Shown: one piece after another, positions 58,891-59,251 of the stretch
Layout of the letters: every line of letters starts with the position of its first letter
How positions within the stretch are numbered: the first letter of the stretch is position 1
Position numbers and translations under genes: made by a program
From: Minisyncoccota bacterium
Lineage (GTDB): Bacteria > Patescibacteriota > Minisyncoccia > Phycocordibacterales > Phycocordibacteraceae
Reading direction: 5' to 3'
NCBI GenBank assembly: GCA_035548315.1
Contig: DASZTF010000044.1
Coordinates: forward strand, 159,615 to 223,614
Length of the DNA stretch: 64,000 nt
The notes under the pieces: model-generated
Told to the model about the DNA's origin: nothing
Databases searched by the model: none
What the model saw: the letters and a program-made list of their open reading frames with translations, nothing else

Positions 58891-58899
58891 ATTACCCTT

Positions 58900-59244
58900 T
58901 TAATGTGTGCCCTGCAACGATCCTTGAATTTTCACTTTGAGGTCATCGAGCTGCCTTCTTGTTCTTTTGATGCGCTCTTCCCCGTCAGGAGTGCCAGAAA
59001 CGTATTGGTTATCCTCATTTACCTCATGTTCCCAAGCGGCAAAGAGGTTGTCGACGATGGCCGGAAAATCTTCATTCTTGAATGCTGCGTACGTTGACGT
59101 TGCGTTAATTTCAGCGAGAAATCGTGATTCCAGCGGCTCACCGATTTCGCTTTCTCGCACTAAATCAGACCAATGGTTCCATAGTCTGCCGTACTTTTTT
59201 TCGAAAGGGCTAAGCTGGTCGAACGTCTGGGTAGGCTTTTCCAT
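58900..59244 (-). CDS. Low-GC orphan gene inserted between atpG and atpD
   Basis: MEKPTQTFDQLSPFEKKYGRLWNHWSDLV...; about 47% GC against about 63% flanks; starts 8 nt after the atpG stop and ends 9 nt before atpD. Confidence 0.5.
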   Translation of the reverse strand: MEKPTQTFDQLSPFEKKYGRLWNHWSDLVRESEIGEPLESRFLAEINATSTYAAFKNEDFPAIVDNLFAAWEHEVNEDNQYVSGTPDGEERIKRTRRQLDDLKVKIQGSLQGTH

Positions 59245-59251
59245 ATATGTA

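Follow-up and report, generated by a model that had tools for sequence, protein, structure and literature searches.

Why should a short, AT-rich open reading frame (ORF) lie between the genes for the gamma and beta subunits of an F-type ATP synthase? We examined this question in a 64,000-nucleotide (nt) stretch of contig DASZTF010000044.1 from a Minisyncoccota bacterium (assembly GCA_035548315.1), hereafter the window. Within it, a minus-strand ATP synthase operon holds a 114-codon ORF, here called ORF114, between atpG and atpD (Table 1). The explanation that we favor, with moderate confidence, is that ORF114 is a genuine orphan gene, restricted to one lineage and carried as a passenger at a gamma–beta junction that is recurrently permissive in Paceibacteria/Kaiserbacteria-like bacteria of the candidate phyla radiation (CPR). 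ORF114 is a singleton orphan gene (ORFan), and it is not a conserved component of the ATP synthase.

An orphan gene at a variable gamma–beta junction

The initial annotation had placed a 114-amino-acid (aa) minus-strand ORF in an atp operon that it described as otherwise contiguous, and both points held up. The coordinates proved correct to within a few bases (ATG at 59244, TAA at 58900–58902), and co-oriented genes for the a, c, b, alpha, gamma, beta, and epsilon subunits, each supported by Pfam, make up the surrounding minus-strand operon. The distance from the atpG stop codon to the atpD ATG is 370 nt, almost all of which is taken up by ORF114. We prefer ATG 58881 as the start of atpD; a TTG at 58890 is possible, but the alignment of relatives begins at the ATG. 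A 158-aa extended version of the ORF114 frame (start at 59376) was rejected, its first 44 residues being an Arg-rich, out-of-frame reading of the 3′ end of atpG. An assembly chimera was also rejected, given that the insert is flanked by the proper ends of atpG and atpD in the expected order and that the native atpD leader is retained.

Searches for homologues of ORF114 returned no relative. A word-index search of 5.8 billion clusters recovered ORF114 itself only (hypothetical protein VHC20_02790), and when 1.84 billion representatives were searched exhaustively with HMMER, the hits were ORF114 and a single 893-aa protein, P0002 (E = 2e-8). We discarded P0002 as a homologue because its score is the sum of eight weak 29-residue matches to tandem repeats. 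This protein contains ~13 near-identical tandem repeats of ~70 aa, and its spurious E value shows that automated annotation calls for care with such proteins. No match with an E value below 0.1 came from Pfam, PHROGs, PADLOC, or NCBIfam (0 PADLOC families at E ≤ 1), a comparison with PDB chains yielded no hit at E ≤ 10, and no relatives were detected in phage genomes (by tblastn), viral contigs, or JGI metagenome contigs. Neither the window nor the related loci described below contain a paralogue or a DNA copy of ORF114. The protein had been noted at the outset as lacking any recognized motif, and profile, sequence, and structure-database searches were in agreement.

We compared the junction across 160 loci encoding relatives of the gamma subunit, 80 from genomes (L001–L080, nearly all labeled Patescibacteria, Parcubacteria, Paceibacterota, Kaiserbacteria, or similar) and 80 from metagenomes (L081–L160). 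At atpG–atpD, 137 of these could be scored. The best atpG identity to the window in the two collections was 73%, and the window alone represents its own lineage. The usual atpG–atpD spacing in relatives is 3–60 nt, with a median gap of 26 nt at atpG identities above 60% and a spacing of 34 nt in the closest relatives (L001 and L024). ORF114 was absent from this position in all scorable related loci (atpG identity ≤73%). Since the closest relatives have the 34-nt junction and lack ORF114, we conclude that it is a lineage-specific gain. The initial annotation had proposed checking whether atpG is followed directly by atpD in relatives; this is the case in the closest ones, and 29 of the 33 loci at >60% identity have gaps of ≤100 nt. 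It had also considered the same gene at the same place with native GC content, for which no example was found among the scorable relatives.

Gaps of >100 nt at atpG–atpD were present in 47 of the 137 scorable loci (4/33 at atpG identities >60%, 36/68 at 45–60%, and 7/36 at <45%), and gaps of ≥250 nt in 30, with a maximum of 1.8 kb. Among the first 80 loci, the other F1 junctions exceeded 100 nt in 12 of 77 cases (atpA–atpG) and 18 of 66 cases (atpD–atpC), and expansion was almost never seen at the junctions of the membrane-sector (Fo) genes. When we considered the 30 gamma–beta gaps of ≥250 nt, the longest ORF lay on the operon strand in 25, and 29 were AT-richer than their flanks (mean GC offset of −0.118), whatever the GC content of the host. 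The corresponding offset of ORF114 from its flanks is about −0.14. At this junction, 38 cargo ORFs reached a length of 60 aa or more; they were found in 27 loci and fell into 31 unrelated clusters. As one interval between core genes in which related genomes carry diverse and unrelated accessory genes, the gamma–beta junction is a hotspot. The gamma and beta subunits are needed in a 1:3 ratio, so their translation is not tightly coupled, which is a plausible reason for the permissiveness of this junction.

The annotated cargo of relatives, listed in Table 1 for all F1 junctions, is varied. Many other cargo ORFs are unannotated, some being small and very hydrophobic (membrane proteins by eye) and some helical. 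When ORF114 was compared with 91 cargo ORFs of relatives by blastp, phmmer, and hhalign, it showed no relationship to any of them, and no hhalign probability reached 1.5%. Two families of ITP hydrolases, Ham1 and NTPase_I-T, recur with NUDIX proteins between F1 genes (atpA–atpG or atpG–atpD) across lineages of Patescibacteria. This recurrence of non-canonical-nucleotide hydrolases hints at a functional link of the ATP synthase with nucleotide-pool cleaning, as opposed to random cargo. Unrelated lineages carry proteins of the PF05635 family as insertions at atpG–atpD or atpD–atpC. The PemK/MazF genes of L021, L025, and L119 have no obvious antitoxin; in L021 and L025, the MazF gene is followed by a conserved ORF of 35–39 aa.

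The initial annotation had likened ORF114 to small selfish or defense-related genes that ride on essential operons. In this account, ORF114 would be a toxin or antitoxin without its partner, or an anti-phage factor, and would take advantage of the strong, essential atp transcript. The company kept at these junctions lends the idea some appeal: PemK/MazF toxins and an MNT-HepT pair (L047) occur at the gamma–beta or an adjacent F1 junction in relatives, a lineage far removed from the window (gamma identity ~38%) conserves an ORF6N (KilA-N-like) protein at atpA–atpG, and ORF114 is itself small, AT-rich, and lineage-specific. However, no toxin–antitoxin or defense family in PADLOC, Pfam, PHROGs, or NCBIfam matched the protein, the phage and viral collections held no match, and a single ORF with no partner fills the gap where a two-gene module would be expected to have both members. 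Moreover, most junction cargo in relatives is of non-defense type (Ham1, NUDIX, NTPase_I-T, SET, and putative membrane proteins), the nucleotide hydrolases being house-keeping enzymes. We consider a selfish or defensive role unlikely; the proposal, an analogy with the MazF and MNT-HepT cargo of some relatives, was not supported for this protein.

Coding potential, composition, and origin of ORF114

An ORF of the length of ORF114 was seldom produced by chance. In 5,000 dinucleotide shuffles of the 370-nt gap, an ORF of ≥114 codons arose on the operon strand in 0.18% and on either strand in 0.34%. We also calculated an amino-acid log-likelihood in which the proteome of the window was set against random translation at the base composition of ORF114. 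By this measure, ORF114 scored +4.9, compared to −11.7 ± 5.1 for random stop-free ORFs (P = 0.0006). Its score per residue (0.043) was similar to those of native small proteins (0.037 for the ORF in the atpH slot and 0.041 for a 121-aa ORF); a 113-aa antisense ORF (58937–59278, plus strand) scored −9.2, a random-like value. The AlphaFold2 model of ORF114, made from the single sequence, contained four helices (residues 13–30, 35–49, 57–82, and 86–112) with a mean predicted local distance difference test (pLDDT) score of 67 and a predicted template modeling (pTM) score of 0.56, versus a pLDDT of 42 for the antisense ORF. The first codon position of ORF114 is G-rich (34%) and the second A-rich (40%), as in real genes; the third is flat, and three-base periodicity taken alone was non-significant (chi-square P = 0.086). 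ORF114 is thus very probably a translated gene. The initial annotation had entertained an ORF without coding potential, and both the shuffles and the composition test favor coding instead.

The ORF114 product has a mass of 13.3 kDa, an isoelectric point of 4.9 (acidic), and a grand average of hydropathy of −0.90 (hydrophilic), and it contains no Cys. By eye, none of its hydrophobic stretches is of sufficient length for a transmembrane segment or signal peptide. The predicted product would be a small, acidic, soluble protein of four helices that lacks catalytic and metal-binding motifs; if functional, it would most likely act by binding another macromolecule and not by catalysis.

In base composition, ORF114 stands apart from its neighbors (Table 1) and from the whole window (GC content of 0.585). 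Only 0.56% of 342-nt windows equal it in AT-richness, and the minimum for the entire stretch (0.450) falls at ORF114. Its GC content at third codon positions (GC3) is the lowest among the 73 ORFs of the window (mean of 0.698, standard deviation of 0.064), about 3 standard deviations below the mean. The sharp compositional break described in the initial annotation was thereby borne out, as was its figure of 47% for the ORF; the 63% that it gave for the flanks was slightly high. Native non-coding DNA has a pooled intergenic GC content of 0.533, with some spacers at 0.41–0.49. The composition of ORF114 is foreign in comparison with the coding DNA of this genome and not in comparison with its non-coding DNA.

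As the most likely origin of ORF114, we infer that foreign or accessory DNA was captured from a donor not yet sampled and that its flanks were then trimmed. A horizontal origin is plausible but unproven. Since low GC content is common to the cargo at this junction whatever the GC content of the host, it indicates no particular donor.

Several points weigh against this account. The GC content of ORF114 (0.46–0.48) lies within the range of native non-coding DNA, and a search of the insert for mobile-element scars yielded only chance-level repeats of 9–21 nt, none of them bracketing the insert. Nor does the insert contain a transposase, integrase, or other ORF that would mark it as a mobile genetic element. 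The recent horizontal insertion claimed in the initial annotation is not established by a composition of this kind in the absence of repeats, integrase, or scar, with AT-rich cargo being general at the junction. The composition test, the shuffles, and the single-sequence AlphaFold model, with its pLDDT of 67, are indirect evidence of coding. Both its transcription and its translation we infer from the architecture of the junction. Lastly, the term passenger says little about function, and a role tied to the ATP synthase in this lineage is possible.

Alternatively, ORF114 may have been born de novo, or may be a proto-gene, in an expanded AT-rich gamma–beta spacer, with no transfer involved. Its resemblance to native non-coding DNA in GC content, its unbiased third codon positions, the lack of mobile-element scars in the insert, and the lack of a homologue among ~15 billion proteins are all as expected of such a birth, and ORF-less AT-rich spacers of 100–280 nt are found at the gamma–beta junction of relatives (L026, L031, L043, L050, L064, and L134, among others). 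We nevertheless regard de novo birth as improbable, given the protein-like amino-acid composition, the well-formed amphipathic helices predicted by AlphaFold, and the fact that ORF114 fills the spacer almost exactly.

It is quite improbable that there is no gene at this position, and that ORF114 is an ORF formed by chance in a long AT-rich spacer or what is left of former cargo after decay. The lack of a homologue and of a Shine-Dalgarno motif, the flat third codon position, the non-significant periodicity, and the presence of an antisense ORF nearly as long would all fit. On the other hand, the chance of such an ORF is 0.2–0.3%, the amino-acid composition and the pLDDT set ORF114 apart from the antisense frame, and its start and stop codons fit precisely against the neighboring genes.

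Architecture of the junction and probable expression of ORF114

The ATG of ORF114 lies 7 nt past the TAA stop codon of atpG and is not preceded by a Shine-Dalgarno motif. The native starts of atpH, atpA, atpG, and atpC share this layout of a stop codon, 2–10 nt, and an ATG, which suggests that translation of ORF114 may be coupled to that of atpG by termination-reinitiation. On the operon strand of the insert, we found neither a sigma-70-like promoter nor a terminator-like hairpin, and the insert had no match to an Rfam family. The placement for co-transcription with the atp genes that the initial annotation had proposed is consistent with this arrangement, and ORF114 is probably expressed by read-through.

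According to the favored explanation, the ~350-bp insert would be essentially a bare ORF that brings along no promoter, terminator, or ribosome-binding site. It would be transcribed on the polycistronic atp mRNA and translated by re-initiation past the atpG stop codon, as the native genes of the operon also appear to be. The 18-nt leader of atpD, AAGGGTAATTTGCTTAAC, resembles the A/T-rich native atpD leader of the closest relatives, indicating that the signals for translation of beta lie downstream of the insert. With this leader kept downstream, expression of the beta subunit would be undisturbed, and the position of the insert upstream of those signals may be the reason that it is tolerated.

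Very improbable, finally, is that ORF114 is a newly evolved or captured F1 regulator or assembly factor of this lineage, an analogue of zeta, IF1, or AtpTheta that would be made in step with gamma and beta, bind F1, and perhaps replace the inhibitory helices missing from epsilon: its co-orientation between the gamma and beta genes, its predicted small, soluble four-helix fold with a disordered N-terminus (superficially similar to the zeta subunit), and an atpC that matches only the N-terminal beta-sandwich would suit such a role, but ORF114 is absent from all relatives, the site holds a heterogeneous cargo, and neither the sequence nor the predicted fold of the protein resembles those of known inhibitors (zeta/DUF1476, IF1, and AtpTheta). 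In a wider form of this reading, the gamma–beta junction in atp operons of Patescibacteria would be a landing pad at which new genes are captured and expressed at once.

The operon, its surroundings, and related systems

Table 1. Features of the ATP synthase operon in the window (positions of the window) and annotated cargo at F1 junctions of related loci (positions of each locus).
Feature	Position	Strand	GC	GC3	Remarks
F-type ATP synthase operon	57259–63680	−			atpB-E-F-(84-aa ORF)-A-G-ORF114-D-C; presumed transcription unit carrying ORF114
atpB (a)	62823–63680	−			Pfam ATP-synt_A
atpE (c)	62536–62814	−			Pfam ATP-synt_C
atpF (b)	61978–62523	−			Pfam ATP-synt_B
84-aa ORF, delta (atpH) slot	61719–61973	−			Pfam none
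atpA (alpha)	60167–61711	−	0.610	0.776	Pfam ATP-synt_ab
atpG (F1 gamma subunit)	59252–60160	−	0.619	0.775	Upstream neighbor; PF00231, ATP-synt, E = 5.8e-79; stop 59252–59254
Spacer, atpG stop to ORF114 ATG	59245–59251	−			7 nt, TACATAT
ORF114	58900–59244	−	0.477	0.509	114 codons plus TAA, between atpG and atpD; GC at first and second codon positions 0.553 and 0.368
atpD leader	58882–58899	−			18 nt, A/T-rich, AAGGGTAATTTGCTTAAC
atpD (F1 beta subunit)	57508–58881	−	0.609	0.750	Downstream neighbor; PF00006, ATP-synt_ab, E = 7.2e-74
atpC (epsilon)	57259–57504	−			Pfam epsilon N-domain only (ATP-synt_DE_N)
PemK/MazF toxin	L021 4906–5298; L025 4915–5301; L119 2307–2729				Gamma–beta or adjacent F1 junction
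MNT + HepT pair	L047 4934–5559				Gamma–beta or adjacent F1 junction
Ham1 ITPase	L014 3464–3997; L021 5417–5977; L047 5974–6591; L110 4042–4632				
NTPase_I-T (YjjX-type ITP/XTPase)	L004 701–1234; L010 3473–3997; L081 2475–2999; L089 561–1085; L119 1765–2304				
NUDIX	L055 4911–5318; L110 4629–5048				
131-aa ORF	L057				Nucleoside deoxyribosyltransferase match sub-threshold (24.2 bits vs. cut-off of 28.8)
SET domain	L025				
Cupin	L007				
23S_rRNA_IVP/Avd-like four-helix (PF05635)	L032 4980–5345; L041 4942–5298				atpG–atpD
23S_rRNA_IVP (PF05635)	L133 5308–5715; L154 5304–5711				atpD–atpC
ORF6N (KilA-N-like) protein, 160–214 aa	L133, L135, L145, L150, L153, L154, L159, L160				atpA–atpG

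Two other genes of the operon are unusual. The epsilon subunit encoded by atpC is just 81 aa long and matches the N-terminal beta-sandwich only, with the C-terminal inhibitory helical domain absent. No OSCP match in Pfam was obtained for the 84-aa ORF of the delta slot, even at E ≤ 1, and a counterpart was detected by tblastn in 26 of the first 80 loci, chiefly the closest relatives; the delta subunit is either strongly reduced or replaced. About 320 nt downstream of atpC lies a 76-aa Lys/Glu-rich ORF (56707–56937, minus strand) with a native GC3 of 0.76; Pfam, PHROGs, PADLOC, and NCBIfam contained no family that matched it. Elsewhere in the window, a second and larger low-GC region spans positions ~8000–12600 (GC content of 0.50–0.55, with a minimum of 0.456 near 11225–11880). 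It contains a tRNA at 11495–11566 (plus strand), followed by a 245-aa ORF (11641–12378), and could be a tRNA-adjacent genomic island.

We found no description in the literature of insertions at the gamma–beta junction. The kind of element is already known, namely, a short AT-rich orphan at a variable core-gene interval, and what is new is a singleton instance in an unusual place. Daubin and Ochman reportedly described, in 2004, lineage-specific, short, A+T-rich ORFans of bacteria. ORF114 is similarly short, AT-richer than the core genes of its host, and without a homologue, in an operon-like context with known genes; unlike them, it does not belong to even a small family, being strictly a singleton, and lies inside a very conserved operon and not in an island. 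Unknown gene families of uncultivated taxa are embedded in conserved operons, and Patescibacteria carry many of them (bioRxiv 10.1101/2022.01.26.477801).

The atpG–atpD interval, with its different and unrelated accessory genes in each genome, can also be compared to chromosomal integration hotspots between conserved core genes, which Oliveira et al. are said to have described in 2017. It differs from these in being intra-operonic, in having a cargo of one to four genes with 25/30 co-oriented, and in that the cargo lacks integrases, tRNA targets, and repeats. In cyanobacteria and chloroplasts, the atp operon is split between the gamma and beta genes. Interruption is therefore tolerated at the identical junction in both settings, although in the genomes compared here the two genes stay adjacent and co-oriented, with cargo between them.

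At the level of the protein, small helical inhibitors of F-type ATPases are known, among them the zeta subunit of Paracoccus and other alpha-proteobacteria, mitochondrial IF1, and cyanobacterial AtpTheta. ORF114 is likewise predicted to be small, soluble, and helical and is genomically associated with F1 genes, but it has no sequence or specific fold similarity to these proteins and is conserved in no relative. The PF05635 (23S-rRNA-IVS/Avd) family offers a second comparison, as its members are of similar size to the predicted four-helix bundle of ORF114 and two of them occupy the same junction (L032 and L041). However, ORF114 has no Pfam match at E ≤ 1, and hhalign gave a probability below 1.5% against an alignment of the L032, L041, L133, and L154 proteins. 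Matches of the predicted fold to 2gsc, 2rld, and Avd were weak and non-significant, being no better than those to bromodomains, YqeY, and Dps.

Taken alone, ORF114 is one more hypothetical protein, of which CPR genomes are full, and its interest lies in its context. The wider pattern, in which F1 junctions of Patescibacteria serve as landing sites and nucleotide hydrolases recur among the cargo, is absent from the literature searched and is of more interest as a lead than ORF114 itself. Across Paceibacteria, these junctions repeatedly carry small, unrelated cargo, most often at gamma–beta, then at alpha–gamma and beta–epsilon. The link of the ATP synthase with nucleotide-pool cleaning in these reduced genomes, if true, would outweigh ORF114 in interest. 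At one particular internal junction, an essential and highly conserved operon tolerates genes of foreign or young origin and apparently expresses them. The cargo bears on why this boundary tolerates interruption, as it does in the split operons of cyanobacteria and chloroplasts, and the site is a natural system for studying how new genes gain expression on an existing transcript.
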